A DNA stretch of 64,000 nt from the NCBI GenBank assembly GCA_964515595.1, contig CAZEUN010000001.1, forward strand, positions 246,282-310,281. Direction: 5' to 3'. This document shows positions 5,412 to 43,686 of the stretch, in pieces. A program made the position numbers and the translations under genes. The notes beneath the pieces are model-generated. The model saw only the letters and a program-made list of their open reading frames with translations, was not told the origin of the DNA and made no database searches. Every line of letters starts with the position of its first letter. Positions within the stretch are counted from its first letter, which is position 1. The DNA comes from an uncultured Oleiharenicola sp. Lineage in GTDB: Bacteria; Verrucomicrobiota; Verrucomicrobiia; Opitutales; Opitutaceae.

Positions 5412-5432
5412 ACGGTTAACACATGTGACCAA
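5412..5432. promoter_or_regulatory. Candidate operator ACGGTTAACACATGTGACCAA (CACATGTG palindromic core), upstream of PL1 paralog 1
   Basis: 21/21 identical to 21680-21700; intergenic. Confidence 0.7.
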
Positions 5433-5499
5433 ACCCACCGCGGTGCCGGCCGGGCGAGCCGCGCGGACGGGACTTTAAACACTCCGCCGGGCGGCAGTT

Positions 5500-5531
5500 G
5501 CCGGGCCGCGCGGGAAACCGCGCGGCCCGGC
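5500..5531. terminator. Perfect 14-bp GC hairpin downstream of PL1 paralog 2 (terminator or mRNA stabiliser; no U-tract)
   Basis: GCCGGGCCGCGCGG-GAAA-CCGCGCGGCCCGGC. Confidence 0.45.
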
Positions 5532-5590
5532 ACTCCCCCTGCCCTCGGCGGGCCGGGGCCAGGGGACTTTTCACTTGCCGCGATCGCTGC

Positions 5591-8500
5591 CTAGGGCGCG
5601 GTGACGAGCACGTCGTCGAAGTCCGCCGTCAGGCCGGACGTCATGAGTGCCGCGCCGCCGGTACCGGACGCGAACGTCGTATCGTTGGCGCGCACGAGCA
5701 GCTGGCCGTCGACATAGCCCCGCAGGCAGGTGCCGATCACTTCCAGCCGGAGCGTGTGCGGCGTGTTCAACACGACGGTGAAGGGCTCCGAGTCGAGCAC
5801 CGTGGACGTGTTGTTCACGAGTTTCTTCAGTTCGAGGACGTTGCTCTGGCCCAGCTTCAGGTAGTAGTAGTTGGTCGCGTCATTGAAGCGGGCGATCAAC
5901 CCGGCCCACTTGTTCGTCGGCAGCGAGTTCGTCGGCGTAATGTCGGCCTCGACCGATTGATTGGTGACGAATCCGCCCTGCCGCGTGCGGGAGTCGGTCG
6001 CGCCCGTGGCGCTCTGGCGGTACAGCGCTGACGCCGCCGCCCACGACCCGCTCAAGGGCGTCCAACGGCTCACGTTCCCATCATTGAAGGTCTCCGCCAC
6101 GAGCACGGCGCCATCCCGCGTCGCGCCGGCGCTCACGTTGTCGTATTTCACGTCCGCGCGGTACATGAGCAGCCCGGCCTTGCCCGGAGGCAGGGGCGTG
6201 CTGTCCGTGGTCTGCACCTTGAGGACGCCGTCGACGTAGAGCTCCAGCGTGGTGGTCGGATAGCCGGAGACGACAAATCGCACGGTGTGGACATCCCCGG
6301 GATTCGTGGTGACGTTCACCACGGAACCGAGCGTCGTGTAGACGGTGTTGAGCATTTTTTTGATCTCCACCGTCGAACCGGTGATCTTCGCGTAGTAGTA
6401 ATTGTCGACGCCGGTGTAGCGCGCGCACAGGCCAAACCAGGCCCCGGGCGCGGCGGGATCGAAGCCCACCAGTTTCGCATCGGCGGTCACGGAGTGATCG
6501 TCGCTGAAGCTGTTGTCGAGGATCGCAAACGGCGCGCTCGCCGCGAACTGGGTTTGCTCGTAGACCTTGTTCCCCGTCTCGGCCGTAACCTGCCAGGTGC
6601 CGCCGGTGCCGCCGCTCGTGGCCGTCCAGCCCGTCGTGGCGCTGTTCTCGAAATCGTGGAAGGTCGTCGCGCGCGGCACGAGGGCGACCCGGAAGTCGTC
6701 GTACACCCCCGAGGTGTTGCTGCGACTAAAGAGTCCGGCTTTGCCCGCGCCCAGGCCCGGTTGCCACACGTTGGGCAGACACGCGACGCCGTTCACGAGG
6801 ATGGCCGTCATGTTGCCCCGCCGCCGCACGGTCGCGTTGAATGGCACGCCCGCGCCGCCGGAATAGACACCAGACGCCACCGTTTGGGGCGAGCCGCCAT
6901 TCGTCACGCTGCTGACCTCGACGTCACCCGCGGTATTGAAGGTCACATAATTGTAGTTGCTCGAATTGACGTAATTATAGACGAGGCCGACGCGGTTGCC
7001 GGTGCCTCCCCAGGTCGTGGTCAGCGTGGCGCTGACGGAGTAATCCGTCGCCCAGGTGCCGCCGTCGTAGAGCGCGATGGCCGCCGTGGTGTTTACCGTT
7101 TGCTTATAGTTATGCGGGGTGGTGTTGACGACCCAGGCTCCGGAAAGCACCGACCAGTTGGGCGCCACGGTGGTGGTCTCGTCGAAAGTCTCCGTGCGCA
7201 CCACCGCTTCCGCCGTCGAGCCTTCCACCTGCGCGGCCAGTTGCTGCAGCCACTCCTCCATCACGGTGTAGCCGCTGGCCAACACGGTCGTGGCATTGCC
7301 GGGCACCGTCCAAGTCGCCGTGTTTTGTTGGGTTCCGTCCGTGGGCCAGCCGCCGGCATCGGCCACGGAATTCACCAGATTGCCCGGGCGGTTGGCCCGG
7401 ACATTGATGACCTGCGCCTGGGCCAGATTGGTCATGACTCCCCGTTCCGCCGAGTCGCGCTCGGCCGGGCGGGCGCCGGCGTAAAGCACCCCATCGGCGA
7501 AGGCCTGGTTCGGTGACACCGGGACGAAGCCCGCCAAGCCCGCCGGCTCCGGCAGCGTGGGATTGGAAGTGACGAGGCGATTGTCGCTGCTGAGCGGGCT
7601 GGCAAACGCGCCATACTCCGACGGGTTCTCGGCCCCACCCTTGTTCCAGTCATTGTTGCTCACGTGAATCTGTGCGAGCGTCCCTGTACTCGCCAGACCC
7701 GTGTTATAGTAGAGCCCGGTATCGCCGCCCCAGGATTTCCCCTCGATGAAACGGTTGCCGACGATCTCCGCCTTCATGCTGGAGATCGCATGAGGGCTCT
7801 CCGCCTCATGGCCGAGCATCATGAAACGGCTCAGCCGGTTATAGAGCACGTTGTTCGCGAACAGGAATTGTTTCGAATAAACCCAGGGGCCGCGTCCCAG
7901 GAGGTGGGCAAAAACGGAACCCGTGAAGCTCAGCCGCCCGCCGGTGTCACTCCCCCAACCCAGGAGCGGGCCCATCGCGTGGTTCTGAATGAGGCCGATC
8001 TGGTCGATGCCAACACTGACGGCGGCACCGGGCTGGCCGAGCAGCACGACCCGGATGCGATAAGGCAGGTAGTCCGCCGTGGAGCCGGGAATCGTGAAGT
8101 GCGGACGAGTGCCGGCAATATGCTCCCCGATGAAATCCACGCTGTCGTAAGTTTGGGCGGGGTTAAAATCCTGGCTGGTATAAGCCGGGGTGCTGGCGGT
8201 GCCCGCGTAGACCTCAACGCGAAAGGAACCGCGGCCCGGACCCGTGATCCCGGTGATCAACGGCACGTTGCCGGTCCGGTTGGTGGCGGCGGACTTGATG
8301 TTGAAGCAGTACTCAATGTAATCGCCGGTATGCCCGGAAACGAGGTGATAGTTGTTGCCGGAGCCAATCCCCTTGGTGGGGTCCGCTGACGGCGTATAGG
8401 TCGTTCCGCTCGTGACGATCGTCTGGACCACGGCCGGCTCGGTGCTGGACCGCGGAAAGGATTCGGCCTGCAACGGGACGTTGGCCGTCTTCGGCGGAAG

Positions 8501-9223
8501 GGTGCCGTCGTAGAACTGTCCCTCGTCGATGTGGATCGAATAAGCGAGCGGCTCGACGAAGGCGCAGCGGTTGAAAGTGACGCCGTCCCAGTTGTTCCAG
8601 AGCTGCACGGATTCATCGAGCGTCCATTGAAACGTGCAATGATCGATGACAATGTTCTCAAGTGAATTGGCGCCCGTGGCTCCCTCGATCCGGATTGCAT
8701 CCCGATTGTGCGTGGGGATGGCGTTCCAATCGTCACCCGGCCGGATCCGCAGGTGCTGGACCAGCACATTGTCCGCGCTGATGACGAACGACCCTCCCTT
8801 GATCGTGATGCCGGGCCAGGGTGCCGTCTGGCCGGCAATGGTGCAATCGGCCTTCGAGAGACTCAGATCGCGCTTCAACGTGATCGTGCCACTCTTCCGG
8901 AATACGATCACCCGGGCACCCGTGGTGGTCCGGGCGAGCACCTCGCGGAGCGAATTCGCGATCGTCGACTCACCGGCGCCGTAGTCGTCGAGGTTCGTCA
9001 CCTCGATGACTTCGAAGTTGCCCTTGAAGCCGGCGGCGGCGGTCGAGGTTCGCTCCAAGCCATAACCGTATACGCCCGGCAGCAGTTGCAGGGCCTGCAG
9101 GCGAAGGCCGCCCAGCAGGAGGAGGGCGAAGGCCGAAATTGCGGAAACAGCTCGGAGAAGTTTTCCGAACGGGGCATGGCAAACTACCGGGCGGGCGGAG
9201 CCCGCGGAGGTCAGATTTTTCAT
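5591..9223 (-). CDS. PL1 pectate-lyase-like protein, paralog 2 (internal insert plus three C-terminal ConA-like/CBM66-DUF1080-like beta-sandwich modules)
   Basis: Signal peptide; QLLPGVYGYG; TIAGQTAPWPGI; HLRIRPGD; IDHCTFQWTLDE; RGPW. Three repeats of (E/H)(T/D)F(D/E/N)...W....G.W...NYY...G..GL....(Y/F)D(D/N). Confidence 0.85.
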   Translation of the reverse strand: MKNLTSAGSARPVVCHAPFGKLLRAVSAISAFALLLLGGLRLQALQLLPGVYGYGLERTSTAAAGFKGNFEVIEVTNLDDYGAGESTIANSLREVLARTTTGARVIVFRKSGTITLKRDLSLSKADCTIAGQTAPWPGITIKGGSFVISADNVLVQHLRIRPGDDWNAIPTHNRDAIRIEGATGANSLENIVIDHCTFQWTLDESVQLWNNWDGVTFNRCAFVEPLAYSIHIDEGQFYDGTLPPKTANVPLQAESFPRSSTEPAVVQTIVTSGTTYTPSADPTKGIGSGNNYHLVSGHTGDYIEYCFNIKSAATNRTGNVPLITGITGPGRGSFRVEVYAGTASTPAYTSQDFNPAQTYDSVDFIGEHIAGTRPHFTIPGSTADYLPYRIRVVLLGQPGAAVSVGIDQIGLIQNHAMGPLLGWGSDTGGRLSFTGSVFAHLLGRGPWVYSKQFLFANNVLYNRLSRFMMLGHEAESPHAISSMKAEIVGNRFIEGKSWGGDTGLYYNTGLASTGTLAQIHVSNNDWNKGGAENPSEYGAFASPLSSDNRLVTSNPTLPEPAGLAGFVPVSPNQAFADGVLYAGARPAERDSAERGVMTNLAQAQVINVRANRPGNLVNSVADAGGWPTDGTQQNTATWTVPGNATTVLASGYTVMEEWLQQLAAQVEGSTAEAVVRTETFDETTTVAPNWSVLSGAWVVNTTPHNYKQTVNTTAAIALYDGGTWATDYSVSATLTTTWGGTGNRVGLVYNYVNSSNYNYVTFNTAGDVEVSSVTNGGSPQTVASGVYSGGAGVPFNATVRRRGNMTAILVNGVACLPNVWQPGLGAGKAGLFSRSNTSGVYDDFRVALVPRATTFHDFENSATTGWTATSGGTGGTWQVTAETGNKVYEQTQFAASAPFAILDNSFSDDHSVTADAKLVGFDPAAPGAWFGLCARYTGVDNYYYAKITGSTVEIKKMLNTVYTTLGSVVNVTTNPGDVHTVRFVVSGYPTTTLELYVDGVLKVQTTDSTPLPPGKAGLLMYRADVKYDNVSAGATRDGAVLVAETFNDGNVSRWTPLSGSWAAASALYRQSATGATDSRTRQGGFVTNQSVEADITPTNSLPTNKWAGLIARFNDATNYYYLKLGQSNVLELKKLVNNTSTVLDSEPFTVVLNTPHTLRLEVIGTCLRGYVDGQLLVRANDTTFASGTGGAALMTSGLTADFDDVLVTAP

Positions 9224-9441
9224 CGGGAATCAGGGAGGGAGGGTTGTCTAGCGGTGCTGCCGACCGGAAAATTATTCACGCGCGCTCCGTCCACCGGCCA
9301 GCCGGCCACGACGGGCATTGGGGTGCGGGGTCCGCGGGCGTGAAGCGGGAATCAGCGCCGAACCGTTCAGGCCGGCGCCGTTCCGTCAGTCATGGATGAA
9401 CCGGGAAAAACATTCCGACCAGGGTCGAAATGGAATGGAGG

Positions 9442-12180
9442 TCAGGGCGAAGTCACGATCACGTTGTCGAAGTCCGCCGCGACGTAGTTGGTGCCCAGCG
9501 CCGCCTTGCCGGCGGGCAGGCCGGCGCCGCTGTTGCTGGTGTCGGTTGCCTCCACCATCAGCACGCCGTTGACGTAACCGCGCAGCTGAACCGGGTTCGT
9601 GCCCGACACCTCCAGGCGCAGGTTGTACCATTCGCCGAGGGTCACGGGAGTCGACGCGTGAGCCGCCGGGGTGAACTCGGTCGGCACGCCAGCGGCCAAT
9701 TTCTTCAATTCCACCGTGTTCGCGTCCGCGCGCAGGAGGAGGTAGTAGGCATTCGACGCATCCGAATGACGCGCATAAACGGCCGCGAAGCGATTCGTGC
9801 CGCTCTCGGCCGCGATCTTCACGTCCGCCTGCACCGTCTGGGAACTCACGTTCGTGCCGGTCACCGTGCGGCCCGACACGGAGGCCTGGCTGGTGAACTG
9901 GTAGACCCCGCCGGCGGCCTGCCAATAGGCGGTCGGCGCATCGGGCGTCCAGCCCGCCGTGCTGTTGGTGTCAAAGTCGCTGAGCGATTGCTGCACATCG
10001 GTCGCGTACGGGCTCGCGAAAACATCGTCGAAGCGCGCCTCGGCGTAGTTGGTCCCGACTGCGGCGAAGCCCGGCGGGAGCGGATTGCTGTCCGTGGCGC
10101 TGAGGTTGACCACCGCGCTCGTGCTCAGGTTGGTGACTTGCGCCGCCAGCGACGCGGCCGCGCCGGGAGCGGGATTGTTGACGGAAATGCGCACGGCGTA
10201 GGTCGTGCCCGTGGTGATGCTGAAGTTCGCCTCGGCGAGCGTCGTGATCAAAGTGGAGCTCGCGCCCTGGGTGATCTTCTTCAGTTCCACCTTGGTGGTG
10301 GAACCGTTCCGGAGGGTGACGTAGTAGGCATTGAACGGATCCTGGTAGCGCGCGTAAACGCGCACGAACCCGTTCGCATTGGAGAAGTTCACCGGCTTCA
10401 CCTTCGCCTCGACCACCTGGTTGAAGAAATTCGTGTTGATCAGAAAGGCCTGCGCATCGCCGCCGGTGTACGTTTGCGCCAGCTCCTTGGTGCCGGTCGG
10501 GACCGACCAGGCGCCGGAAACATCATCCGGATACCAGCCTCTCATGTCGTCGTCGCTGAACGTGTCGAAGGTCGCGATGCGCTGGTCGCCCTCGATGTTC
10601 CAAGCCGCATAATGGAGTGCCTCCTCCAGGTTGGTGTAGCCATCGCCATCAGGATCCTGATCCGGATTGGCTGGCAGGACAAAGTTCGCGGTTCTAACGA
10701 GATCGACCGGCGCCCACGGATTGGTCGCGGGGTCCAATCGCTCAACGAACGAGTTCGACCGCGCCTGAATGTTGCCGAAAAGAGCGGCGTCAAGCGGGTC
10801 GCGGCGCGCCGTGAATTTGCCGGCGTTCGATACCAGCTTGGCCTCCAGCACCGTCCGGTCGGCGGCCAGCGTCGATCCGGGTACGACGCGCGTCGACCAG
10901 GGCGTCCACTTCCAGTCACCGGAATTGGCATGCGGGTCGGTGGTATACTCCTTGGTGACCGGAGGAGTCGTCGAGCGGTCGCGGAAAAACGACGAGTCAT
11001 ATTGGTTCGTCACCGGCGACGGGAACCAGCCCGCGGAAATCGGCGGGGTCGTGGAAGAAGCAAGATTCAGCAGGCGGTTTTCGGACAGATAAGTGGTCAC
11101 GTTCGGAGTGCTGTTATCGATCACGTAGAAACCTTGGGCGGCGTTACCCGTGCCTGTTTCCGGGATGGTCTGGTCACCATTGGGCCCATGGAGCGTATAG
11201 GGCTGGCGGAGCACCACGTTGCCGACGGCGGAAACCGTCAGGTCGAACAAGTCATCTCCCGCATCAATGGTGCCGATATATATGGCCCGCTTCTCCCCGT
11301 ATCTGGGGTTATAGATGAAGTTGTTCGCGATTTGCACACCGCGGGCCATGTCGCGAATGAGCGGATTCCGCTCCAAGTTGAAGGCCATCACGTTTCGGAT
11401 CAGGGAAACGTTGTCGGTGTGCGGTCCCACGACCGGTCCATAACCGTGCGCGCCTCCGTTGGGATGACCGGCGTAAATCACCGGTTGCCCCACTAACGAG
11501 CGAGAAATCGTGACGCCATCGACCTCCCCATAGGGCAGAGGTCCGTCGACGCCACCGGTGTCTCGTTTGTCGTCGGGGTCACTCGACCAAAATGACACCA
11601 CTTCGTCCGTGGACCAGCTGCACGAGACGTGATCGAAGACCACGTTCGACACCGTTCCGCTCGATGGCGTAATCTTGATGCAGTCGCGGTTGTCGATTCC
11701 CGCGAGTTTCCACTGATCGGTGACATTCGCATGCAGGTAGTTTCCCGGGCGGATCGCGAGGTGTTGCACCAGCACGTCGTGGCCCAGCACCATGATCGCG
11801 CCGTTGCGCAGCGTGATTCCCGGCCAAGGGGCCGTTTGGCCGGCGATAGTCAGGTAGCTGTGGTTGGCCCGGACGATCAAATCGCCCTGCAGCTGAATCA
11901 CCCCCGAAGTGTCGAAGACGATTACCGTGGGCGTATTGGCCAGGCTCGAGTGCTCCACACCATATCGCAAGGTGCCCGGCACCAAGCCGGCATTGTTCAA
12001 GGCGGGGTCATCCAGTCGGGTCACTCGATAGACGTTGGTGGCGCCGCGGGCGGCCGCGGACTGGCTACCGAAGCCAACAATGCCGGGGACGACCGGGATG
12101 GCTTGAAGGGATTGAAGGGAGACCAACAGCAAGCCGAGCGCGGGAAGCATTCGGCTGCGCATTGTACAGTGCGTTTTCAT
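9442..12180 (-). CDS. PL1 pectate-lyase-like protein, paralog 3 (canonical uninterrupted beta-helix plus two C-terminal ConA-like modules)
   Basis: TIAGQTAPWPGI; NRDC; FDHVSCSWSTDE; GHPNGGAHGYG short loop; RNPLIR (RxPxxR); DPDGDGYTNLEE. Start at MKTHCT (12180). Confidence 0.87.
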   Translation of the reverse strand: MKTHCTMRSRMLPALGLLLVSLQSLQAIPVVPGIVGFGSQSAAARGATNVYRVTRLDDPALNNAGLVPGTLRYGVEHSSLANTPTVIVFDTSGVIQLQGDLIVRANHSYLTIAGQTAPWPGITLRNGAIMVLGHDVLVQHLAIRPGNYLHANVTDQWKLAGIDNRDCIKITPSSGTVSNVVFDHVSCSWSTDEVVSFWSSDPDDKRDTGGVDGPLPYGEVDGVTISRSLVGQPVIYAGHPNGGAHGYGPVVGPHTDNVSLIRNVMAFNLERNPLIRDMARGVQIANNFIYNPRYGEKRAIYIGTIDAGDDLFDLTVSAVGNVVLRQPYTLHGPNGDQTIPETGTGNAAQGFYVIDNSTPNVTTYLSENRLLNLASSTTPPISAGWFPSPVTNQYDSSFFRDRSTTPPVTKEYTTDPHANSGDWKWTPWSTRVVPGSTLAADRTVLEAKLVSNAGKFTARRDPLDAALFGNIQARSNSFVERLDPATNPWAPVDLVRTANFVLPANPDQDPDGDGYTNLEEALHYAAWNIEGDQRIATFDTFSDDDMRGWYPDDVSGAWSVPTGTKELAQTYTGGDAQAFLINTNFFNQVVEAKVKPVNFSNANGFVRVYARYQDPFNAYYVTLRNGSTTKVELKKITQGASSTLITTLAEANFSITTGTTYAVRISVNNPAPGAAASLAAQVTNLSTSAVVNLSATDSNPLPPGFAAVGTNYAEARFDDVFASPYATDVQQSLSDFDTNSTAGWTPDAPTAYWQAAGGVYQFTSQASVSGRTVTGTNVSSQTVQADVKIAAESGTNRFAAVYARHSDASNAYYLLLRADANTVELKKLAAGVPTEFTPAAHASTPVTLGEWYNLRLEVSGTNPVQLRGYVNGVLMVEATDTSNSGAGLPAGKAALGTNYVAADFDNVIVTSP

Positions 12181-12360
12181 CAGGTTATGGGGTTGACTGC
12201 GAGTTGGTGCTGCCGATGAAAAACAATTCCTTGGTGACCTGATCGGAAATGGAGGGCCGCTGCTTGCCGGCGAGCCGTCGGGCGCATGCGGTCGCCATCC
12301 CCGGCCCCGCGACCAGCGCGGGCCCTCCATTGATTTTTTTATGGCGCGATGCTCATGCGA

Positions 12361-35482: not shown

Positions 35483-35490
35483 TCGGCGCG

Positions 35491-35595: not shown

Positions 35596-37575
35596 AGTCT
35601 GGCCGCCCCAGCGATCGCAGCGGCTGAATCACCCGCCCCGGAACCCCGGCTCCAACTGGTGTCACCGCTCAACCCCACGCTGAGCCCGTACACCGGCTAC
35701 ACGCGCCAGCACTGGCTGGAGATCACGGAACGGCTCCTGGCAGGCGTCCTGCCGCATTTCACCCCGGACGGCACGCCCCGGCTGCCCGCGCCGGCGGGCG
35801 AGACGGCGTTCAACTCCGGCAGCATGCCCGCGAGCGTCGTGCCGGTGGACAAGCAGGCGTTCGAGCGGATCATGATGCTCAGCGTGATCTACTCGGGGGC
35901 GACCGGCCGTGACACCGTGCCCGGCTACAACGGCTCGATCACCGAACCCTTCCGTCGCGGCATGATGCAGGCCCTCGATCCCCAAAGCCCGCACTACTGG
36001 GGACCGCCCGCCAACGCGGAGCATGCGGGTTCGATCTTCGCGCTCGGGGCCATGCTGAGCCCGAAGTATTTCTGGGACGCGTTCACTCCCGCCCAGCGCA
36101 CGCTGGTCCTGAACTACCTCGAGCAGCTCAGCGCCGGACGATCCTACGACAACAACCACTACCTCTTTCACCTCACCCCCACGCCCCTGCTCGAGGCCAA
36201 CGGGCGCGACGGGCGGCGCGCGCCGCACACGGCCATGCTCGAGCGGTTGTACGGGATGTACCGCGGCGACGGCTGGTTCATCGACGGCAGCAATCTCTCG
36301 TTCGACAAATACAACGCGTGGGGCTTCCACCTCTACGACCAGGTCGTGTACCGGTTCGATGCGCCGTGGCGGAAACAGTTTGGCCCGCGCATCGAGGACT
36401 CGACGCGGCGCTTCCTGGACACCTACGCATACACCATCGGCCGCGATGGCGGCCCCGTGCCGTGGGGGCGGTCGCTCTCCTACCGGTTTGCGGAACTGGC
36501 CGCGCTGGGCTGGGCCTCGTGGAACGGCACCAACCCGCTGCCGCCCGGCGAGGCGCGGCGCCTCGCGTCCGGCGTGCTCCGCTATTTCTGGGAGCACGGC
36601 GCGCAGGACCCGGACGGCCTGCTCCAAGTCGGATTCCGCGGCACCAATGCCGCCGTCGCGGAATTCTACAACGGCCCAGGCACGTCGTATTGGGCCGCCC
36701 ATGGCCTGATCGCGCTGATGATCCCGGCCACGGACCCGTTCTGGACCGCGACCGAGCAGCCGATGCCCGCGGACACGGGCGCGCATACGATCGTGATCGA
36801 AGGCGCCCAGATGGTCGCGCGGACGCTCCCCGACGGCGAGGCGCGCGTCTATCCTGCGGGCCAGCCCTTCTCCCGGGCGCACGACCATTGGCAACGCGGC
36901 GTGAAGTACCAACAGCACGCCTACTCGAGCGCCCTCGGCTGGTGCACCCTCGGGGAAGGCACCGACCTCGGCGCCGGCCGCACCGGCGCGTCGGTCGACG
37001 GCAAGGCCTGGCAGTATCGCGACCATGCGCGCGTCCTGTCGATCGCCCCCGACCACCTCGCGAGCGCGTGGGGACTGGACGTGTCGTTGAGTTACCAGCC
37101 GGCGGTCGATGACCGTTACGAATTCGTCACGCACACGCTGCTCGGCACGACAGGCGAGCTGCACATTTTCTGGCACCGGAGCCCGCAACCGCTGTACCTC
37201 CACCTCGGTGGCTACGGCATCGGCAGCCCCGATGTGGCCTCGATTCAAACGCGGCAGGACGCAAACCACATCGAGTTGCAGACCCCGGAGTATCGCTCGG
37301 TGCTGCGGGTCTACGAGGCCCCGGCCGGGGCGCTGACCCATGAGGTGCTGACGCCGCGCGAAGGCTGGAAGCAGGCGCACCTCTTCGACCTCGCCGGGAC
37401 CTTCCCCCTCTGGCGCAGCGCCGCGCCGGTTCCGGCCAACACGCCGGTCATCCTCTATGTGGATGGCGGGCGCAACCGGCCCGTGGCGGAGCCCGACGTG
37501 CGCATCGAGCATGCCCCGGGAAAACTCACGGTCCATCTGGACGGGAAGACGCAGGTGATATCCGTGCCATGGTAA
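35542..37575 (+). CDS. DUF2264 family protein #2, long form with C-terminal beta domain and signal peptide
   Basis: YTGYTRQHWLEIT.RLL.G, DNNHYLF, YRGDGWFIDG, FDKYNAWGFH.Y, WGRSLSYR, YNGPGTSYWA. Confidence 0.8.
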   Translation: MKLICTSTLFGLWTFGVWSLAAPAIAAAESPAPEPRLQLVSPLNPTLSPYTGYTRQHWLEITERLLAGVLPHFTPDGTPRLPAPAGETAFNSGSMPASVVPVDKQAFERIMMLSVIYSGATGRDTVPGYNGSITEPFRRGMMQALDPQSPHYWGPPANAEHAGSIFALGAMLSPKYFWDAFTPAQRTLVLNYLEQLSAGRSYDNNHYLFHLTPTPLLEANGRDGRRAPHTAMLERLYGMYRGDGWFIDGSNLSFDKYNAWGFHLYDQVVYRFDAPWRKQFGPRIEDSTRRFLDTYAYTIGRDGGPVPWGRSLSYRFAELAALGWASWNGTNPLPPGEARRLASGVLRYFWEHGAQDPDGLLQVGFRGTNAAVAEFYNGPGTSYWAAHGLIALMIPATDPFWTATEQPMPADTGAHTIVIEGAQMVARTLPDGEARVYPAGQPFSRAHDHWQRGVKYQQHAYSSALGWCTLGEGTDLGAGRTGASVDGKAWQYRDHARVLSIAPDHLASAWGLDVSLSYQPAVDDRYEFVTHTLLGTTGELHIFWHRSPQPLYLHLGGYGIGSPDVASIQTRQDANHIELQTPEYRSVLRVYEAPAGALTHEVLTPREGWKQAHLFDLAGTFPLWRSAAPVPANTPVILYVDGGRNRPVAEPDVRIEHAPGKLTVHLDGKTQVISVPW

Positions 37576-37597
37576 TCCTCATGCCCACCGCCTCATT

Positions 37598-37625
37598 CCC
37601 CGGCAGGAGCTTGTTTACAAGCGAT
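37598..37625. promoter_or_regulatory. Second conserved intergenic motif, copy 2, immediately upstream of GH1
   Basis: CCCCGGCAGGAGCTTGTTTACAAGCGAT; 25/28 identical to 25237-25264. Confidence 0.5.
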
Positions 37626-37642
37626 TCCCCTTCCTGAAGCGC

Positions 37643-38989
37643 ATGAAACATCCCTATTCCTTCCCGCGCAGTTTCGCCTGGGGCGTGGCGACGGCCGCGC
37701 CGCAGATCGAGGGCGCCGCCGCGGCGGACGGCAAAGGCGAGTCGATCTGGGACCGATTCGCCCGCCGCCCCGGCGCCGTGCGCGGCCGCGCCACACCGGC
37801 GGTGGCGTGCGATCACTACCGGCGGTTTGCGGACGACATCGCCCTGATGGCGCAACTCGGGGTGAAGCACTACCGCTTCTCGCTCGCGTGGCCGCGGATC
37901 CATCCCGACGGCGGCACGGCGGTGAATCGCCCGGGCCTCGATTTTTATCACCGCCTGCTCGACGCGTGCGGGCGGCACGGGGTCGAGCCCTGGGCGACGC
38001 TGTATCACTGGGATTTGCCGCAGGCGCTGGAAGACCGGGGCGGCTGGACCCAGCGCGCGACCGCCGACGCCTTTGCCCGCTATGCCGAAACCGTCACGCG
38101 CGCCTTCGGGAAGCGCGTGCGCCGCTGGTTCACGTTGAACGAAATTCCGACGTTCATCGGGCACGGCTACCGGCTCGGGGTGCACGCACCCGGCCGGAAG
38201 GAGTCGCCGGCGACAATCGCGCAGGCGTTCCATCACGCCCTGCTCGCCCACGGGCACGGCGTGGCCGCCGTCCGGGAGTTCGCCGGGTCCCGGGCTCGCG
38301 TCGGGCTCGCGCACGATTTGCTCGTGCCGATACCCGTCACGGAAACGCCCGCCGACATCGCCGCGGCCGAGGGCGAACTCGCCGCCCGCAACGCGCACCT
38401 GCTGGCGCCGGTTTTCCACGGCCGCTACGCCAGCGCGACCTTGCGCCGGCGCGGACAGGCGCAGCCGGCGATCCGGCGCGGCGACCTGGCCCTGATCTCG
38501 CAACCGGTCGATTTCCTCGGGCTGAACATCTACAGCGGCGACTTCGTGCGCGCCGCGCGCGGGGGCCGCGCCGAGGTGCTCCCCTGGCCGCCGCAGTATC
38601 CGACCGCCGGGCTCGACTGGCTGCGGCTGGCGCCGCAGTCGATCTACTGGGCGCTGCGGCACTGTCATTCGCTCTATCGTCCGAAGGAACTTTATATCAC
38701 GGAAAACGGCGCCGGCTACGACGAGCCCGCCGCCGTGACGGCCGAGCCCGTCGATTTGCACCGCCGGGATTACCTGCGCAACCACCTGTTGCACGTGCAG
38801 CGCGCCGCGGCCGAGGGCATCCCGTGCCGCGGCTACTTCGCGTGGTCCTTCCTGGACAATTTCGAATGGGCCGAAGGCTACGCCAAGCGCTTCGGGCTGG
38901 TGCACGTGAATTACGCCAGCCAGCGGCGCACGCCCAAGCTCAGCGCCCGCTGGTATGCCGGCGTGATCCGCGAAAACCGCGTGCTCTGA
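37643..38989 (+). CDS. GH1 beta-glucosidase
   Basis: FAWGVATAAPQIEG, CDHYRR, YRFSLAWPRI, TLYHWDLPQ, TLNE (acid/base), YITENG (nucleophile), DNFEW.EGY..RFG. Confidence 0.95.
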   Translation: MKHPYSFPRSFAWGVATAAPQIEGAAAADGKGESIWDRFARRPGAVRGRATPAVACDHYRRFADDIALMAQLGVKHYRFSLAWPRIHPDGGTAVNRPGLDFYHRLLDACGRHGVEPWATLYHWDLPQALEDRGGWTQRATADAFARYAETVTRAFGKRVRRWFTLNEIPTFIGHGYRLGVHAPGRKESPATIAQAFHHALLAHGHGVAAVREFAGSRARVGLAHDLLVPIPVTETPADIAAAEGELAARNAHLLAPVFHGRYASATLRRRGQAQPAIRRGDLALISQPVDFLGLNIYSGDFVRAARGGRAEVLPWPPQYPTAGLDWLRLAPQSIYWALRHCHSLYRPKELYITENGAGYDEPAAVTAEPVDLHRRDYLRNHLLHVQRAAAEGIPCRGYFAWSFLDNFEWAEGYAKRFGLVHVNYASQRRTPKLSARWYAGVIRENRVL

Positions 38990-39011
38990 CCCTGACACCG
39001 CCGCCCGCCGC

Positions 39012-41051
39012 ATGATCGCTTTCCATTTCCTCGATTACGTGGTGGTCATCGGCTACGCCCTCCTCGTCGTGGGCCTGGGCCGGCGCGTCGGTCGAAAACC
39101 CGGCAACACCAGCCAGGAGGGATTCTTTTTGGCGGGACGGAAACTCGGGAAAACCTACCAGTTTTTCCTGAACTTCGGAAACTCCACCGATGCCAACGGC
39201 GCCGTCAGCACCGCCAGCCTCGTCTATCAGCAAGGCGTCTCGGCGGTGTGGCTGGCTTTCCAGATGGTTTTCATGAACCCGTACTTCTGGTTCATGAACG
39301 TGTGGTTCCGCCGCGCGCGCCTGATCACGATGGCCGACCTGATCGACGACCGCCTCGGCAGCCGCCGGCTCTCGCAATTCTACGCGATCGTGCAGGTCCT
39401 GGTCGCCGTGATCGTCTTCATCGGCTTCGGCAATGTCGTCACCTACAAGATCTGCGCCGCGCTGGTCGTGAAGGCCGAGTCGGCCTGGACCGCGGAGGAG
39501 CGCACGTCCGTCGAGGACTATCACGTCTTCCGGCAACTCACGGTCGCGGCGGACGCCGGCGGGCTGGATGCGGCCGGCCAGTCCCGGCTGGAGATCCTGC
39601 GCGAGCGCAACAACCGCGGCGAACTGCGAGGCACCATCACCGGCCTGCGTCCGCTGACATTCTATCTCGTCTACACCCTCGTGGTCGGCCTCTACATCGT
39701 CAGCGGCGGCATGGCGGCCACCGCGGTGAATGAAATCGTGCAGTGCACGCTGATCTTCGCCTTCTCCCTGATGCTGATCCCGATCGGGTTCCACGCGATC
39801 GGCGGCCTCGGCGCGCTGGCGGCGAAAGTGCCGCGGGCCACCTTCGAACTGTTCGGGCAGGAGGGCGTGAGCCAGGTGACCGGCTGGACGGTCGCCGCGG
39901 TGTTTGCCGTCTCGTGGGTGCAGATCACCGGGATCATGGGCAACATGAGCATCGGCGGCTCGGCGAAGAGCGAATACGCGGCGCGCTTCGGCGCGGTGTC
40001 GGGCACGTATGCGAAACGCTTCATGATCATGATGTGGGCGGTCTGCGGCTTGATCGCGTGCGCGCTTTACACGGGCGACAAGGCGCTGGCGGACCCGGAC
40101 ATGGTCTGGGGCCACATGTCGCGCGACCTGCTCGGGCCCGGCCTCCTGGGCATCATGCTGGCCGGCATCCTCGCGGGCAACATGTCGACCGTGGCCGCCC
40201 AGACGATGTCGGTCTCGGCCCTCGTCGTGCGCAATGTCTGGCGGCATTTCCGTCCGGCCATGGACGAGGCCGGCGCGGTCGCGGCCGGACGCTGGACCAT
40301 CGTGCTCGTGCTGGCGCTGGGCATCGTGGCTGCGCTCAGTTCGGACAACATCTTCGCGTTCTTTCAATTGATGCTGACGATCAACGTGCCGTTCGGCGCG
40401 TCGGTGCTGCTGATGTTCTTCTGGCGGCGGCTCACGGCGCCGGCCGTCTGGACCGCCGTGTTGCTGTCGACGCTGGTCAACATCGTGGCGCCGCTCGCCT
40501 TGCTGCAGTTCGAGTCGATCCGCCTCAATCCGGCCCTGACCGTGCGCGTCGAGGACGCGGCCGGCCGCCGCACGCCGGTCTATTTCGACGCGGTGGCCCG
40601 GCTGCGTCCGCAGGATCCCGCGAGCCCCCTCGAGGGACGCAGTCGCCTCCACACCGAACTCTATTTGTTGAAGTGCGTGGGCGTGCCGGTGGAAACCATG
40701 ACCCCCGGCCACCGGCTGGCCGCCCGATTCTTCTTCGATGCGCTCTTCCCCTTCATCTGGTTGATCGGTGTCAGCCTGGCCACGCGGCCGCCCGCGGAAG
40801 CCCGCATCAGGCGATTCTTCGGCAAGATGAAAACGCCCGTCGCCGAAACGCCCGACCTCGACCTGCGCGAGATGGCGAAGACCGAGCAGGATCCGCACCG
40901 GTTCGATCATACCAAGCTCTTTCCGCGGTCGAGCTGGGAGTTCACGAAATGGAACCGCGTGGATGCGATCGGCTTCCTCTCCTGCTGCGCCATCTCGGGC
41001 GCGATCGTGATCCTGTTCTGGCTCATCTGCCGCGGGCTCGGCCCGCGCTAG
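39012..41051 (+). CDS. Sodium:solute symporter (SSS) family transporter #2
   Basis: FFLAGRKLG, many TM segments, LGIMLAG.LA..MST; long extramembrane loops. Confidence 0.85.
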   Translation: MIAFHFLDYVVVIGYALLVVGLGRRVGRKPGNTSQEGFFLAGRKLGKTYQFFLNFGNSTDANGAVSTASLVYQQGVSAVWLAFQMVFMNPYFWFMNVWFRRARLITMADLIDDRLGSRRLSQFYAIVQVLVAVIVFIGFGNVVTYKICAALVVKAESAWTAEERTSVEDYHVFRQLTVAADAGGLDAAGQSRLEILRERNNRGELRGTITGLRPLTFYLVYTLVVGLYIVSGGMAATAVNEIVQCTLIFAFSLMLIPIGFHAIGGLGALAAKVPRATFELFGQEGVSQVTGWTVAAVFAVSWVQITGIMGNMSIGGSAKSEYAARFGAVSGTYAKRFMIMMWAVCGLIACALYTGDKALADPDMVWGHMSRDLLGPGLLGIMLAGILAGNMSTVAAQTMSVSALVVRNVWRHFRPAMDEAGAVAAGRWTIVLVLALGIVAALSSDNIFAFFQLMLTINVPFGASVLLMFFWRRLTAPAVWTAVLLSTLVNIVAPLALLQFESIRLNPALTVRVEDAAGRRTPVYFDAVARLRPQDPASPLEGRSRLHTELYLLKCVGVPVETMTPGHRLAARFFFDALFPFIWLIGVSLATRPPAEARIRRFFGKMKTPVAETPDLDLREMAKTEQDPHRFDHTKLFPRSSWEFTKWNRVDAIGFLSCCAISGAIVILFWLICRGLGPR

Positions 41052-41073
41052 AGTGCGCCGCGACCGCCCAATC

Positions 41074-42120
41074 ATGACCCTTCCCATCGGCATCGTCGGG
41101 CTTCGCTTTGGCAAACTGGTTCTCGAACGCATCGCCGCCGGCGAGGGCCGTCACCATGTGCGCGTCGCCGCGGTGTGCGACCTGGATCCCGCCCTGGCCG
41201 GGCGCATCGGCGCAGACTGGGGTGTCCCGGCGTTCTCATCGCTGGACGCATTGCTGGCGGACCCGGCCATCCCGACCATCGGTTTGTTCACGCCCCCGGC
41301 GGGGCGCGCGGCCCTGATTCGCCGCTGCCTCGCGGCGGGCAAGGACGTGATGACCACCAAACCCTTCGAACTCGACGCGCGCGCGGCGGCCGACGTCCTG
41401 AAGGAGGCGCGGCAGCAAGGCCGCGTGGTTCACCTGAATTCGCCGAGCCCGGGTCCCGCGGATGTCGCGCAAATCCAGGCCTGGATGCGCGAGCACGACC
41501 TCGGCCGTCCCGTCGCCGCACGCGCCGAGATGCTCACGAGCGTGCGGGAGCAGGCCGATGGCTCCTGGTATGACGACCCCGCGCGGTGCCCCCTCGCGCC
41601 GGTGTTTCGCATCGGCATCTATTTGATCAACGATCTCGTGACGCTGTTTGGCTCCGCGAGCCAGGTGTTCGCCCAGGGCGAGCGCGTGCGCACCGGCCGG
41701 CCCACGCCCGACCAGGCGCAGCTGTCCCTGCGCTTTCGCGACGGCGGGCTCGGCAGCATCTATGCGACCTATTGCTGCGACGACGGCGGGCGTTACCTCA
41801 ACAGCCTGCTGCTGCATTGCGAGCGCGGCACGATCCACCGGAACCTCGCGCCGGACCTGGCCTGGCAATCCGGACCTTTTTTCAGCGCCCAGCTCGACCT
41901 CGTCATGGGCAGCTCGCGGGAACGGCGTCACGTGGCTTCCCGGCGGATCGACCTGGTCAGCGGCGAATACGAATGGGCGACGTTTGCCGACGCGGTCCGG
42001 GCGCGCCGGCCGCTCGATGCAGCCACGTGCGGAATTGTCGTCGAAGGAATCCGCGTCGTGGAAGCCATGGGGCGCAGCGAACGCACGGGCGCGCCCGTCG
42101 AACTGCCGGCGCTGGCTTGA
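41074..42120 (+). CDS. Gfo/Idh/MocA family oxidoreductase #2
   Basis: GIVGLRFG, KDV.TTKP; start MTLPIG (41074). Confidence 0.85.
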   Translation: MTLPIGIVGLRFGKLVLERIAAGEGRHHVRVAAVCDLDPALAGRIGADWGVPAFSSLDALLADPAIPTIGLFTPPAGRAALIRRCLAAGKDVMTTKPFELDARAAADVLKEARQQGRVVHLNSPSPGPADVAQIQAWMREHDLGRPVAARAEMLTSVREQADGSWYDDPARCPLAPVFRIGIYLINDLVTLFGSASQVFAQGERVRTGRPTPDQAQLSLRFRDGGLGSIYATYCCDDGGRYLNSLLLHCERGTIHRNLAPDLAWQSGPFFSAQLDLVMGSSRERRHVASRRIDLVSGEYEWATFADAVRARRPLDAATCGIVVEGIRVVEAMGRSERTGAPVELPALA

Positions 42121-42206
42121 GCATCAAACGGGAGCCGGGGCGGCGACGGCCCGCAGTCTCAGTCGCGCGGCCTGATCCAGGCGCGCGTCGACTGCCGGAC
42201 TCAGGA

Positions 42207-43532
42207 TCAGCGGCTGGGGTTGAGGATTTCGGTGCCCGCGAGCAGGAGCACGCCGCGGACGTGCTCACCGTCATCAAATCGTTCGCGCCCGGCGTAGTAA
42301 TCCAAGGTCAGGCCGATGCCCGTCCCGCGCACCGCACCCTTGATGACACCTTCCGGCGTGAGATCGCTGGCCGCCACGCCGGCAAAGGCCCGGCGCGCGA
42401 CTGTCATGTCCTCCGCCGGCAGCCAGCCGCGGTTCACCCCGCGGGCGATCGCGTAGGCGAACATGAGCGTGGCGGAGGTTTCCGGCCAGATATCGGTCCG
42501 GTCGACGACATTGGTCCACACGCCGGACGCCGGTTGGTATTGCTTCAAGCCCGCCACCTGGCGGCGGAAGATGTCGAGCAGCGCCGGGCGGTCCGGGTGA
42601 TCCGCGGGCAGCGCGGACAGCACCTCCGCCGTCGTCACCGCGATCCAGCCGTTCGCGCGGCTCCACTTGAACGGCGAAGCCTGGCGTAGCGGGACGCTGT
42701 ATCCGTGAAACCAAACGCCGTCGGTATCCTGCAGGCGGGCGGCCATGTTGATGATCTGATGGGCCGCATCCGTGAGGTGCTGGCCGTTGCCGGTGTAGGC
42801 CGCCCAGCGCACGAGGAACGGGCAGCTCATGTAGAGATCGTCGGCCCAGATCGTGCCCATCGGCCAGGTCTTGCCCTGCGCGGTCATGGCCGGCCGCCAG
42901 AACGTGCCGTCGGGCAGGCGCTCCTGCTCGTCGACGATCCAGTGCGCGACCCGCGCCACCACGAGCTTCTCCTCCGCGGTGACTTTGTCGGGAGCGCGGA
43001 GCATGCCCTCGAGGAAGGCGGCGCCCATGGCGCCGCAATTGTCGAGGTTGCCTAGGCGAAGGAGCCCCATGAGCGGGCTTTTCCGCTCGAACGCCTTCAC
43101 GGCCTCCACGTCGCCTTTCGGACGAGGCACGGTTTCAAGCCAGGCCCAGTAGCGGCCCACGATGCGATTGTGTTCCAGCACCCAGTCGAGGATATCCCGG
43201 TCGCCGGTGGCATCGACCGAACGCATCATGCCATAGAGCGTGACGCCCCACGGGTAATACCACTCGATGCCCGCCGGCGCACGGGCCGCCGCCGCGGCGG
43301 CGAGGGTGTCGACAGGCGCATAATCGCCATCTGCAAGCGGCGCCCGCGGCACAATATGGCCCTTCGGCAGGACCGGACTGGAAACGTCGCGCTGGTGCCG
43401 GGCGACCACGCGCAGGATTTCCCGGATGGAGGCGTCACTTTGGCCGGTGAAATCGACGGATGACTTGCTCGACGTGCTGGCAATCCCGGAGCAAGCCAGG
43501 CCGAGAAGAAGAGTCAGGAGGGGTGTTTTCAT
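42207..43532 (-). CDS. GH105/GH88 unsaturated glycuronyl hydrolase, secreted or lipoprotein-like
   Basis: LDNCG, WADDLYM..PFL, W.HG, WSRANGW, ETSAT, GTG.G; N-terminus LLLGLACS. Confidence 0.88.
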   Translation of the reverse strand: MKTPLLTLLLGLACSGIASTSSKSSVDFTGQSDASIREILRVVARHQRDVSSPVLPKGHIVPRAPLADGDYAPVDTLAAAAAARAPAGIEWYYPWGVTLYGMMRSVDATGDRDILDWVLEHNRIVGRYWAWLETVPRPKGDVEAVKAFERKSPLMGLLRLGNLDNCGAMGAAFLEGMLRAPDKVTAEEKLVVARVAHWIVDEQERLPDGTFWRPAMTAQGKTWPMGTIWADDLYMSCPFLVRWAAYTGNGQHLTDAAHQIINMAARLQDTDGVWFHGYSVPLRQASPFKWSRANGWIAVTTAEVLSALPADHPDRPALLDIFRRQVAGLKQYQPASGVWTNVVDRTDIWPETSATLMFAYAIARGVNRGWLPAEDMTVARRAFAGVAASDLTPEGVIKGAVRGTGIGLTLDYYAGRERFDDGEHVRGVLLLAGTEILNPSR

Positions 43533-43671
43533 GTTATCAGAACCATGGGAAAGCCCCGCTGCGCGGCCGAACCCGTCAGCCAGTCAGCCCGAGGTAGTTT
43601 TCAGCGCGGTCTCGCTGCGGGGAGGGCCGCCAGCAGGCCACATCCGCGGTCCACCAGCCATTTTGCCGACA

Positions 43672-43686
43672 GTAGCACATGTGACC
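43672..43686. promoter_or_regulatory. Operator GTAGCACATGTGACC upstream of GH105
   Basis: Perfect CACATGTG core; flanks match the 5412/21680 sites. Confidence 0.65.

Follow-up and report, generated by a model that had tools for sequence, protein, structure and literature searches.

A polar TG-centred motif, probably the operator of a local LacI/GalR-type regulator, recurs upstream of the transcription units of a verrucomicrobial polysaccharide locus

Results

Genes and candidate operators of the locus

The window, that is, the whole stretch of 64,000 nucleotides analysed, contains a 40-kb polysaccharide locus of an Opitutaceae (Lacunisphaera-like) bacterium, the features of which are listed in Table 1. 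The DNA originated from a groundwater metagenome. The 635-aa gene downstream of S1 is possibly co-transcribed with an M14 peptidase gene (1895-3226). What the initial annotation labelled PL1 is no more than a remote resemblance to PelZ, scoring 110-120 bits where the cut-off is 840, and the basis of the label GH105 is a Pfam Glyco_hydro_88 match.

Table 1. Predicted operators, putative promoter elements and genes of the locus, in window coordinates
Feature	Position	Strand	Remarks
635-aa protein	3223..5130	-	N-terminal PelZ-like beta-helix stretch; S1 target
S1, predicted operator GTCACATGTGTTAA	5416..5429	-	Inside 21-nt exact copy of S2; upstream of 635-aa PelZ-like gene; predicted -35 TAGTGA 5399-5404; predicted -10 TACCTT 5377-5382
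S2-driven operon (presumed)	5591..21573	-	TonB-dependent receptor (TBDR) 18103-21573; 1873-aa Big_7/MBG/Ig protein 12361-17982; 962-aa PelZ-like protein 9442-12330; 1210-aa PelZ-like protein 5591-9223
S2, predicted operator GTCACATGTGTTAA	21684..21697	-	Centre 117 nt upstream of TBDR ATG 21573; predicted -35 TGGGTT 21667-21672; predicted -10 TACGGT 21644-21649
Heparinase II/III-like polysaccharide lyase gene	21713..23968	-	S3 target
S3, predicted operator TTCGCATGTGTTAC	24108..24121	-	Divergent lyase/LacI region, pointing to lyase gene; predicted -35 TTGCGT 24091-24096; no nAnnnT at spacer 15-19
LacI/GalR-family regulator, 344 aa	24185..25219	+	Helix-turn-helix VHRTTVSLAL, hinge PDPMLSAL
S4, predicted operator CTCACTTGTGCGAC	25345..25358	+	Upstream of DUF2264 gene 25425-26645; predicted -35 TGGCGT 25370-25375; predicted -10 GATCGT 25393-25398
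S5, predicted operator ATCACATGTGCGAC	26677..26690	+	Centre 91 nt upstream of dehydrogenase ATG 26775; predicted -35 TGGCGG 26702-26707; predicted -10 CAGCGT 26724-26729
S5-driven operon (presumed)	26775..42120	+	In order: 2-hydroxyacid dehydrogenase, SSF transporter, GFO/IDH/MocA oxidoreductase, AP_endonuc_2 TIM barrel, CE15 glucuronyl esterase, cellulase-like protein, GH109-like protein, DUF2264, GH1, SSF transporter, GFO/IDH/MocA oxidoreductase
S6, predicted operator GTCACATGTGCTAC	43672..43685	-	Centre 146 nt upstream of GH88/GH105-family gene 42207-43532; predicted -35 TGGCTG 43655-43660; no nAnnnT at spacer 15-19

Recurrence of the motif in the window

The octamer CACATGTG occurs in four exact copies in the 64-kb window (5420, 21688, 26679 and 43676), against 0.87 expected, and none of 100 dinucleotide shuffles contained four or more copies. 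Two further copies carry one mismatch (CACATGCG at 24112-24119 and CACTTGTG at 25347-25354). S1 and S2 are identical at 21 of 21 positions (5412-5432 and 21680-21700), and the DNA surrounding them is unrelated. After the start codons had been revised against orthologs (TBDR, ATG 21573; dehydrogenase, ATG 26775; DUF2264, GTG 25425; 635-aa gene, ATG 5130), all six sites were intergenic, with one site ahead of each transcription unit of the locus.

A position weight matrix, trained on the same six sites that it scores, gave at least 16 bits for each of them and 13 bits for the next best match, and no seventh site was detected in the window. No match fell in the short gaps between the genes of the S2 operon, in the intergenic gaps (<=90 nt) of the S5 operon or among the housekeeping genes at 44-64 kb (~20 kb). 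The recurrence of six sites reported in the initial annotation is real, and its view of a cis-regulatory motif limited to the locus, one per transcription unit, agrees with the absence of any other match in the window. The consensus that it gave, (G/T)T(A/C)(A/G)CACATGTGA, is right for the window when read as the reverse complement, but the middle A is over-specified. No description of the motif was found in the literature searched, in keeping with the suggestion that it is possibly unreported. Together, the results support the sites as a real cis-regulatory motif associated with the single LacI-family gene of the window.

Conservation and spread of the motif

In orthologous loci encoding 73-91% identical LacI proteins, the sites stand as conserved islands within diverged intergenic DNA. 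S2 and S5 were each conserved in six orthologous regions, including the TACGGT and TGGCGG blocks, respectively. The S3 ortholog in locus L001 reads GGTCGCATGTGTTACC, and the variable base of the S4 orthologs is C, G, A and G in L001, L012, L020 and L021, respectively. S1 was absent from the orthologs L099, L100 and L101 and is therefore lineage-specific, so that the conservation for which the initial annotation had proposed a check extends to islands such as S2 and S5, but not to S1.

The search was extended to 825 kb of metagenomic sequence, comprising the window and 101 fetched LacI-centred loci. The matrix gave 64 matches of at least 14 bits against one in the reversed sequence, a count that overstates the number of independent events because orthologous sites are not independent. 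All matches in the 825 kb lay beside LacI-subfamily genes or adjoining sugar-utilisation genes, typically 60-90 nt upstream of the LacI ATG or 20-100 nt past the LacI stop, and neither the housekeeping promoters of the window nor other parts of the locus flanks contained any. Sites and LacI-subfamily genes were found together in more than 50 loci.

Architecture of the site

As read from the aligned sequences, the conserved unit is a 14-bp imperfect even palindrome, GTCAC-nTGT-GYKAC, with its axis between the central T and G. In the logo built from 52 non-redundant sites, positions +/-3, +/-6 and +/-7 follow the palindrome, and +/-4 and +/-5 do so in part. The centre is TG in all 52 sites as opposed to the canonical CG, which was restricted to the rare distant paralogs L047 and L061; a non-canonical centre, together with an unusual recognition helix, had been noted in the initial annotation. 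The palindrome of CACATGTG itself is not the constrained symmetry: any of the four bases can stand at its fourth position in orthologous and paralogous sites, and the axis is shifted by one base in the 3' direction.

Across paralogs, co-variation follows a palindrome made up of a 5-nt arm, nTGT and a second 5-nt arm. Perfect forms (CCGTCAC-CTGT-GTGACGG) occur among the sites; those of the window are imperfect, the arms pairing at 3 of 5 positions in S1, S2, S5 and S6. Paralog groups keep the CTGT centre and change both arms jointly, as in GTCGC/GCGAC, TTAAA/GTTAA, GTAAA/GTTAC, CTCTC/GTGAG and TTGAC/GTCAC. All four proteins with a Cys recognition helix (TVCLAL) were associated with arms [GT]TAA[AC]...GTTA[AC], and both VAR.TVSYAL proteins with TGAC...GTCA. 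Paralogs encoded on the same contig (L053/L062 and L065/L066) differ in their arms. We propose a recognition code in which the recognition helix would specify the arms and the hinge the centre. The arms are almost the same in the window group and in the L015-type paralogs, the main difference being at position -2 (A vs C), and thus cross-talk or a shared binder may exist between them. A CRP/Clp-type site (TGTGA-N6-TCACA) was ruled out, the arms here being GTCAC/GTGAC with a 4-bp gap.

Polarity and promoter geometry

The site has a polarity because its centre is asymmetric, and every site showed the same polarity relative to the downstream gene. At positions +19 to +21, which lie outside the matrix, T, K and G were found in 51, 49 and 49 of the 52 sites, respectively, and no signal was detected at the mirror positions. 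The site end was separated from this putative -35 by 11 bp in 51/52 sites. At a spacer of 16-18, 31/52 sites carried the pattern nAnnnT, compared with 2-7/52 for control spacers (~10-fold enrichment), and the variant-arm paralogs showed the same TKG/nAnnnT arrangement downstream. A scan for the strict sigma-70 consensus found no promoter in the site regions, and a sigma-54 GG-N10-GC reading was rejected because it fits S2 and S6 alone.

On these statistical grounds, T(T/G)G and nAnnnT were read as putative -35 and -10 elements. Because T(T/G)G lies 11 bp downstream of the site and nAnnnT 16-18 bp further, the operator centre would fall near -53.5, on the upstream side of the core promoter. With TGG/TTG + YGG, the putative -35 elements are weak, which is what promoters that depend on an activator would be expected to show. 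S3, centred 146 nt from the lyase ATG (23968) and 70 nt from the LacI ATG (24185), does lie before the LacI gene as initially described, but points to the divergent lyase promoter; autoregulation of the LacI gene through S3 is possible.

The LacI-family protein

The protein encoded at 24185-25219 is the sole LacI homolog in the window. Its helix-turn-helix domain matched PF00356 (36.7 bits; cut-off 27), PDB sequence matches were confined to the DNA-binding domain (E ~1e-5), and Pfam gave no C-terminal domain match in this protein; PF13377 is precomputed for its homologs. The AlphaFold model (pLDDT 86.8, low confidence at residues 58-70) matched full-length PurR, LacI, CcpA, CelR and RbsR in Foldseek (E 1e-17 to 1e-18, ~355 columns). 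The model indicates a full LacI/GalR fold, including the C-terminal periplasmic-binding-protein-like (type I) effector/dimerisation domain. The hinge YxPDPMLSAL aligned with YRANAQARAL of 3bil, with the final Leu kept, in a region modelled at low confidence. PDPMLSAL is invariant across the subfamily alongside the invariant operator centre, and the recognition helix VHRTTVSLAL has no Arg after VS.

Discussion

Proposed mechanism and alternatives

The six sites are probably operators of the LacI/GalR-fold regulator of the locus, working by contact with RNA polymerase. The regulator would bind all six, and the local regulon would span all transcription units of the polysaccharide locus. The helix-turn-helix motifs of the dimer would read the two 5-nt arms, and the invariant hinge helices would read the central nTGT, standing in for the canonical nCGn. 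Contact is preferred over occlusion because the site lies outside the core promoter with fixed polarity and spacing; near -53.5, the regulator would touch RNA polymerase stereospecifically. A plain promoter-occluding operator is unlikely, given the polar sites and their fixed distance to the -35-like TTG/TGG; no overlap with the putative -35, -10 or start region was seen in ~50 promoters. The analysis demonstrates the sites, with their conservation, polarity, association with the LacI subfamily and constant spacing to TKG and nAnnnT; binding by LacI, promoter assignment, mode of action, effector and operon boundaries are what we infer here.

Regarding the sign of regulation, analogy with CcpA at ackA/pta and GalR at galP2 inclines us slightly towards ligand-dependent activation; contact repression, as by GalR at galP1, is a possible reading that we do not favour. 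Most LacI-family proteins are repressors that their ligands release from DNA, and activation would therefore need ligand-promoted binding, which is less common. More broadly, and tentatively, a large, so far undescribed LacI/GalR subfamily of Opitutaceae and other Verrucomicrobiota might comprise ligand-dependent, class-I-like activators of polysaccharide-utilisation promoters. Their polar CTGT/ATGT-centre operator would be read by the PDPMLSAL hinge and would keep a set orientation and phase, 11 bp ahead of a weak -35, with one particular dimer subunit facing RNA polymerase.

The same protein and sites could instead constitute a conventional repressor at about -53.5, which would block the alpha-CTD/UP-element or trap RNA polymerase until released by a polysaccharide breakdown product. 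In this family ligand usually lowers the affinity for DNA, and such allostery suits a catabolic locus without extra assumptions. LacI-family regulators of local sugar pathways are overwhelmingly repressors, and 72% are autoregulated (PMC4052901); GalR at OE (-60.5) represses galP1 through contact (PMC4693257). However, in ~50 promoters the operator is clear of the -35, -10 and start, the gap to the -35 is exactly 11 bp, CcpA sites upstream of -35 are the activating ones (PMC3463425), and the weak -35 elements are again those of activator-dependent promoters. We regard such a repressor as a credible minority view.

It is improbable that the motif is not bound by LacI and is instead an upstream promoter element or the site of another factor, such as an alternative sigma or a carbon regulator of global reach, shared by many sugar loci. 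Its polarity and its constant distance to the -35 do resemble a promoter, and two LacI groups only 56% identical have nearly the same arms; however, the arm-centre-arm layout is typical of LacI-family operators, the arms differ between paralog groups in a palindromic manner that follows the recognition-helix residues, and the unlike arms of the same-contig paralogs argue against a common factor, as do the lack of matches at housekeeping promoters in the window or flanks and of any sigma or second regulator gene in the locus. Even less probable is an RNA element, a short hairpin with a 5-bp stem and a CUGU/AUGU loop in 5' leaders. Such a hairpin could form from perfect sites like GTCAC-CTGT-GTGAC, and its loop, being strand-specific, would account for the polarity, but the incomplete pairing of the arms in S1, S2, S5 and S6 and the conservation of individual bases beyond pairing speak against it, and the sites would not be transcribed because the predicted -35/-10 lie downstream of them. 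Chance matches or remnants of repeats or mobile elements, to which the exact 21-mer shared by S1 and S2 might point, are effectively refuted by the unrelated flanks of the two copies, the retention of sites at orthologous positions across many assemblies, and near-zero shuffle and reversal controls.

Significance

In soil, fresh water and the gut, much of the breakdown of complex glycans is due to Verrucomicrobiota; we know of practically no account of how they switch on degradation loci, and of no established promoter model for the phylum. The operators proposed above offer a testable regulon of six promoters and ~20 genes, a binding-site model transferable to dozens of paralogous loci, a simple code of protein-DNA recognition (arms with recognition helix, centre with hinge) and a promoter model for the phylum (TTG/TGG -35, nAnnnT -10). 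If the fixed upstream geometry means activation, this would be the first known LacI subfamily with positive control as the default. In that case, the polar TG centre would provide a natural system for studying the recognition of an asymmetric operator by a symmetric dimer.

Comparison with known systems

In the RegPrecise survey of LacI regulons, the centre was CG for 1173/1303 factors and another pair for 49 (~4%), and Verrucomicrobia lay outside its scope (Ravcheev et al. 2014, PMC4052901). The present locus resembles the local LacI/GalR sugar regulons of that survey in its locus-encoded LacI-fold regulator with a site near its own gene, and in having one 14-20 bp even palindrome per catabolic or transport operon, 30-140 nt upstream of the start codon (PMC4052901). 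It differs from them in the TG (nTGT) centre, the polar site at its constant 11-bp distance from the downstream -35, and the unusual recognition helix VHRTTVSLAL and hinge PDPMLSAL.

LacI-family repressors of Xanthomonas and Caulobacter control adjoining TonB-dependent receptors and glycan-degrading enzymes from canonical CG-centred operators overlapping the promoters. The LacI-type regulator beside a TonB-dependent receptor is a shared trait, whereas the phylum, protein subfamily and site geometry are different. Bacteroidota PUL regulators (hybrid two-component systems, SusR, ECF sigma/anti-sigma) likewise exert substrate-dependent control over a receptor-plus-enzyme locus, but belong to wholly different families, no genes of which occur in this locus.

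At the gal operon of E. coli, a GalR dimer at OE (-60.5/-55.5) contacts the RNA polymerase alpha-CTD, inhibiting P1 and activating P2 (PMC4693257). An upstream LacI-family dimer in contact with RNA polymerase is also proposed here; however, gal uses a second operator and HU-dependent looping, whereas each promoter here has a single site, no second operator being seen in the locus. CcpA bound to cre at ackA, pta and ilvB of Bacillus subtilis is similarly a LacI-family dimer upstream of the -35. The ackA cre is centred near -56.5, close to the value of about -53.5 estimated here. Such cre sites upstream of -35 activate in a helix-face-dependent manner (PMC3463425). In contrast to CcpA, a global protein that needs HPr-Ser-P and represses from most of its sites, the regulator described here is local and every one of its candidate sites lies upstream.

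Candidate operators in the carbohydrate locus

The window (G+C 66%) contains a single carbohydrate locus, which spans 3.2-43.6 kb and is followed from 44.8 kb on by housekeeping genes (ParA, ABC-2, RNase III, Mfd, SurA-like, RadC, cardiolipin synthase, threonine synthase, aspartate kinase, PlsY, and SerA). The LacI family is represented by one gene only in the 64 kb. Homologs of its product carry the names of Opitutaceae, i.e. Lacunisphaera, Rariglobus, and strains TAV4 and TAV5. The closest genome locus, and the one close ortholog obtained in a GTDB genome scan with the single LacI protein, was that of a Lacunisphaera MAG (LacI 91% identical), and the window sequence was found in groundwater metagenome DNA runs only.

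The candidate operators (S1-S6) and the genes of the locus are listed in the table. The sequence CACATGTG was observed in four copies against 0.87 expected, a number never reached in shuffles, and one-base variants were located at 24112 (CACATGCG) and 25347 (CACTTGTG). All six sites were intergenic once the start codons were corrected against orthologs, which confirmed the six recurring intergenic sites of the initial annotation, as well as the identity of 5412-5432 with 21680-21700, whose flanks are unrelated. The site centers are 73-146 nt upstream of the start codons (292 nt for S1), and a scan of the 64 kb with the position weight matrix of the site detected no further site of comparable score.

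Candidate operators, predicted promoter elements, and genes of the carbohydrate locus (window positions)
Feature	Position	Strand	Target gene	Predicted -35	Spacer (bp)	Predicted -10
S1	5416-5429	-	PelZ-like, 635 aa	TAGTGA	16	TACCTT
S2	21684-21697	-	TonB-dependent receptor	TGGGTT	17	TACGGT
S3	24108-24121	-	lyase	TTGCGT		none found
S4	25345-25358	+	DUF2264	TGGCGT	17	GATCGT
S5	26677-26690	+	dehydrogenase	TGGCGG	16	CAGCGT
S6	43672-43685	-	GH88/GH105	TGGCTG		none found
PelZ-like protein, 635 aa	3223-5130	-
PelZ-like protein, 1210 aa	5591-9223	-
PelZ-like protein, 962 aa	9442-12330	-
Big_7/MBG/Ig protein, 1873 aa	12361-17982	-
TonB-dependent receptor	18103-21573	-
Heparinase II/III-like lyase	21713-23968	-
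LacI-family gene	24185-25219	+
DUF2264 gene	25425-26645	+
15-kb gene row, 2-hydroxyacid dehydrogenase to GFO/IDH/MocA oxidoreductase	26775-42120	+
DUF2264/SSF/oxidoreductase cassette, first copy	25425-30847	+
DUF2264/SSF/oxidoreductase cassette, second copy	35542-42120	+
GH88/GH105-family gene	42207-43532	-
Intergenic region upstream of GH88/GH105	43533-44134
Terminator-like hairpins	43891-43941
213-aa ORF	44135-44776	-

The three PelZ-like proteins are large paralogs with a common N-terminal stretch resembling pectate lyase PelZ. This resemblance is weak (110-120 bits, far under the NCBIfam cut-off of 840), and Pfam gave no match or just a GH59 C-terminal lectin domain; the paralogs may be lyases or hydrolases of a new family with a beta-helix scaffold. 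The Big_7/MBG/Ig protein of about 1870 aa always comes after the TonB-dependent receptor in orthologous loci (L006, L009, L018, and L100), no SusD-like gene was seen, and the protein may act as a surface glycan-binding partner in Verrucomicrobial loci. The 15-kb row includes two SSF transporters, a CE15 esterase, a GH109-like protein, GH1, and a second DUF2264, and the long plus-strand row carries two copies of a cassette in which DUF2264 is combined with an SSF transporter and a GFO/IDH/MocA oxidoreductase. The core LacI-DUF2264-dehydrogenase-SSF was found again beside different enzymes (GH5, cellulase, and GH2) in paralogous loci. The intergenic region containing S6 is unusually long (~600 nt) and also holds several terminator-like hairpins; the 213-aa ORF flanking it had no family match.

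Extent and symmetry of the candidate operator

The refined matrix, trained on the same collection as it scored, gave 64 matches of at least 14 bits in all loci (825 kb) and 1 in the reversed sequence. Each match adjoins a LacI-subfamily gene or neighboring locus genes, in a collection made up of loci centered on LacI genes. The logo of 52 non-redundant sites reads G T C A C n T | G T G Y K A C, and the site counts overstate independent events since orthologous sites are of common descent. With positions counted from the site center (+ toward the target gene), complementarity was present at +/-3, +/-6, and +/-7, in about half of the sites at +/-4 and +/-5, and never at +/-1 (T/G).

Loci with a LacI of only 50-60% identity, including that of Lacunisphaera limnophila (L015), have TCAC-C-TGTG at the same two places and share the core layout (receptor, LacI, DUF2264, dehydrogenase, and SSF transporter). 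The variable base of the DUF2264 site is T, C, G, or A in window orthologs, indicating that the A which makes CACATGTG palindromic is unconstrained. Distant paralogs retained the center CTGT with both arms altered jointly (GTCGC/GCGAC, TTAAA/GTTAA, GTAAA/GTTAC, CTCTC/GTGAG, CTCTW/AAGAG, and TTGAC/GTCAC), and this decided between two possible symmetry axes. Thus, the CACATGTG palindrome, initially taken as the symmetry of the site, was abandoned. As read from the aligned sequences, the site plan is the arm-center-arm operator of the LacI family with TG replacing the usual CG, in agreement with the earlier proposal that the core is unlike the classical LacI type. Among 1303 LacI-family factors surveyed, the center was CG in 1173 and another pair in 49 (PMC4052901). 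Rare subfamily sites with the canonical CG center were observed in L047 (~6085, +; CTCAC-CCGT-GTGAG) and L061 (2526, +; TTCAC-ACGT-GAGAA).

Conservation in orthologous loci

Orthologous loci (L001, L006-L014, and L018-L021; LacI 73-91% identical) were gathered by exact-protein look-ups and one metagenome scan, and their gene order was preserved. The conservation proposed as a check was seen, in position and orientation, for the sites before the receptor, in the lyase/LacI gap, before DUF2264, and before the dehydrogenase, but not for S1, which had no equivalent upstream of the 635-aa gene in three orthologous contexts (L099, L100, and L101). In the receptor and dehydrogenase upstream alignments, the site was an invariant island, and the remaining DNA was ~48% identical. 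The 635-aa gene of L100 comes directly after the Big_7 gene within the receptor gene row, and two additional PelZ-like genes lie between them in the window. Given its absence from orthologous contexts, S1 was judged to have been copied recently from the 21-mer of S2; this gene arrangement and the exact 21-nt match with unrelated flanks suggest a recent rearrangement that brought in a new operator-promoter copy.

Proposed link between the candidate operator and the LacI protein

The window LacI has a significant LacI helix-turn-helix domain but resembles family members of solved structure only remotely in sequence; a PDB sequence search matched its DNA-binding domain only, and the Pfam periplasmic-binding-protein models did not match its strongly diverged effector domain. 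The predicted structure superposes full-length on PurR, LacI, CcpA, CelR, and RbsR, and the family relationship of the effector domain is visible through this predicted fold alone. Conservation among 36 aligned subfamily members was highest in the DNA-binding region, and the invariant hinge Y-x-PDPML-x-x-L matches the invariant site center. The arms were [GT]TAA[AC]...GTTA[AC] for proteins with the recognition helix TVCLAL (4/4) and TGAC...GTCA for those with VAR.TVSYAL (n=2), and two paralogs on one contig had different arms. The L061 protein is the sole one with an altered hinge (PDPMLMAL, not PDPMLSAL) and its site is CG-centered, which hints that the differing residue selects TG or CG. By the usual comparative-genomic standard, the site can be provisionally assigned to the LacI-subfamily factor.

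Polarity and predicted promoter geometry

In gene orientation, the six window sites share one reading direction, as do all sites elsewhere: those upstream of LacI always face away from it, toward the divergent receptor or lyase, and those after LacI always face the next gene. Outside the matrix, T at +19 (51/52), T or G at +20 (49/52), and G at +21 (49/52) were conserved, and no conservation was found at the mirror positions of the 52 aligned sites. When +19 was taken as the -35 start, nAnnnT, likewise outside the matrix, occurred at 16-18 bp spacing in 31 of the 52 sites, compared with 2-7 in three-spacer control windows. The blocks TACGGT and TGGCGG were kept in ortholog alignments, and the variant-arm paralog sites had TTG or TGG exactly 11 bp downstream. 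The fixed +19 to +21 element and the nAnnnT spacing would therefore place the operator center at about -53.5 and its end 11 bp upstream of the predicted -35. This promoter model was derived from position-specific conservation, after a strict sigma-70 scan around all six sites had detected no promoter.

Several other readings of the motif were rejected. The final T (+10) required for the right arm as an extended -10 (TGnTAnnnT) is not conserved, and a sigma-54 element with the TGG at +19 within GG-N10-GC fits, by inspection, no sites other than S2 and S6. An RNA hairpin, a CRP-like site, and a repeat or chance match were also rejected.

The LacI start codon is 60-90 nt away from S3 and its equivalents; these sites could overlap the LacI promoter, and LacI autoregulation may occur. 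A search for this promoter next to the divergent sites yielded no convincing -35/-10. In the paralog group of 54-58% identity, an A-rich stretch and then CTCGCG are conserved on the LacI side, at a distance of 35-45 nt from the operator in the direction of the start codon (L015, 7935-8000; L016, L022, L025-L027, L031, L033, and L042). This box may belong to the promoter or leader of LacI; it did not appear in the group of the window itself.

Proposed mode of regulation and comparison with known systems

The lack of core-promoter overlap, together with one spacing and one orientation in about fifty promoters, argues for contact with RNA polymerase rather than steric repression, and a regulator at about -53.5 would make this contact stereospecifically. 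Based on this geometry and the weak -35 elements, the regulator probably activates, if by no means certainly; activation would need a product of the locus enzymes to promote DNA binding or polymerase contact. The family prior is for repressors, and repression through contact is accordingly a tentative alternative, against which the same geometry and weak -35 elements speak; any other explanation is improbable. Positive and negative control from upstream sites both have precedents in this family. At ackA, pta, and ilvB, the CcpA sites located upstream of the -35 are activating in a helix-face-dependent manner (PMC3463425), and GalR at OE contacts alpha-CTD, by which galP1 is inhibited and galP2 activated (PMC4693257).

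No relevant literature was found on the motif, Verrucomicrobia LacI regulons, or DUF2264, nor any describing the subfamily, a TG-centered polar operator, its fixed upstream position, or the promoter model, and the main LacI regulon survey is without Verrucomicrobia (PMC4052901). As far as this search goes, the motif is unreported, as had been suspected. Signature peptides of the subfamily were found in more than 550 metagenomic stretches. In summary, local LacI-family regulons of sugar loci that encode a receptor and enzymes are a well-known kind of system; what appears to be new is the large LacI subfamily, its putative TG-centered polar operator, and the fixed position of the latter upstream of a predicted -35, with the conserved -35/-10-like elements providing a promoter model for the phylum.
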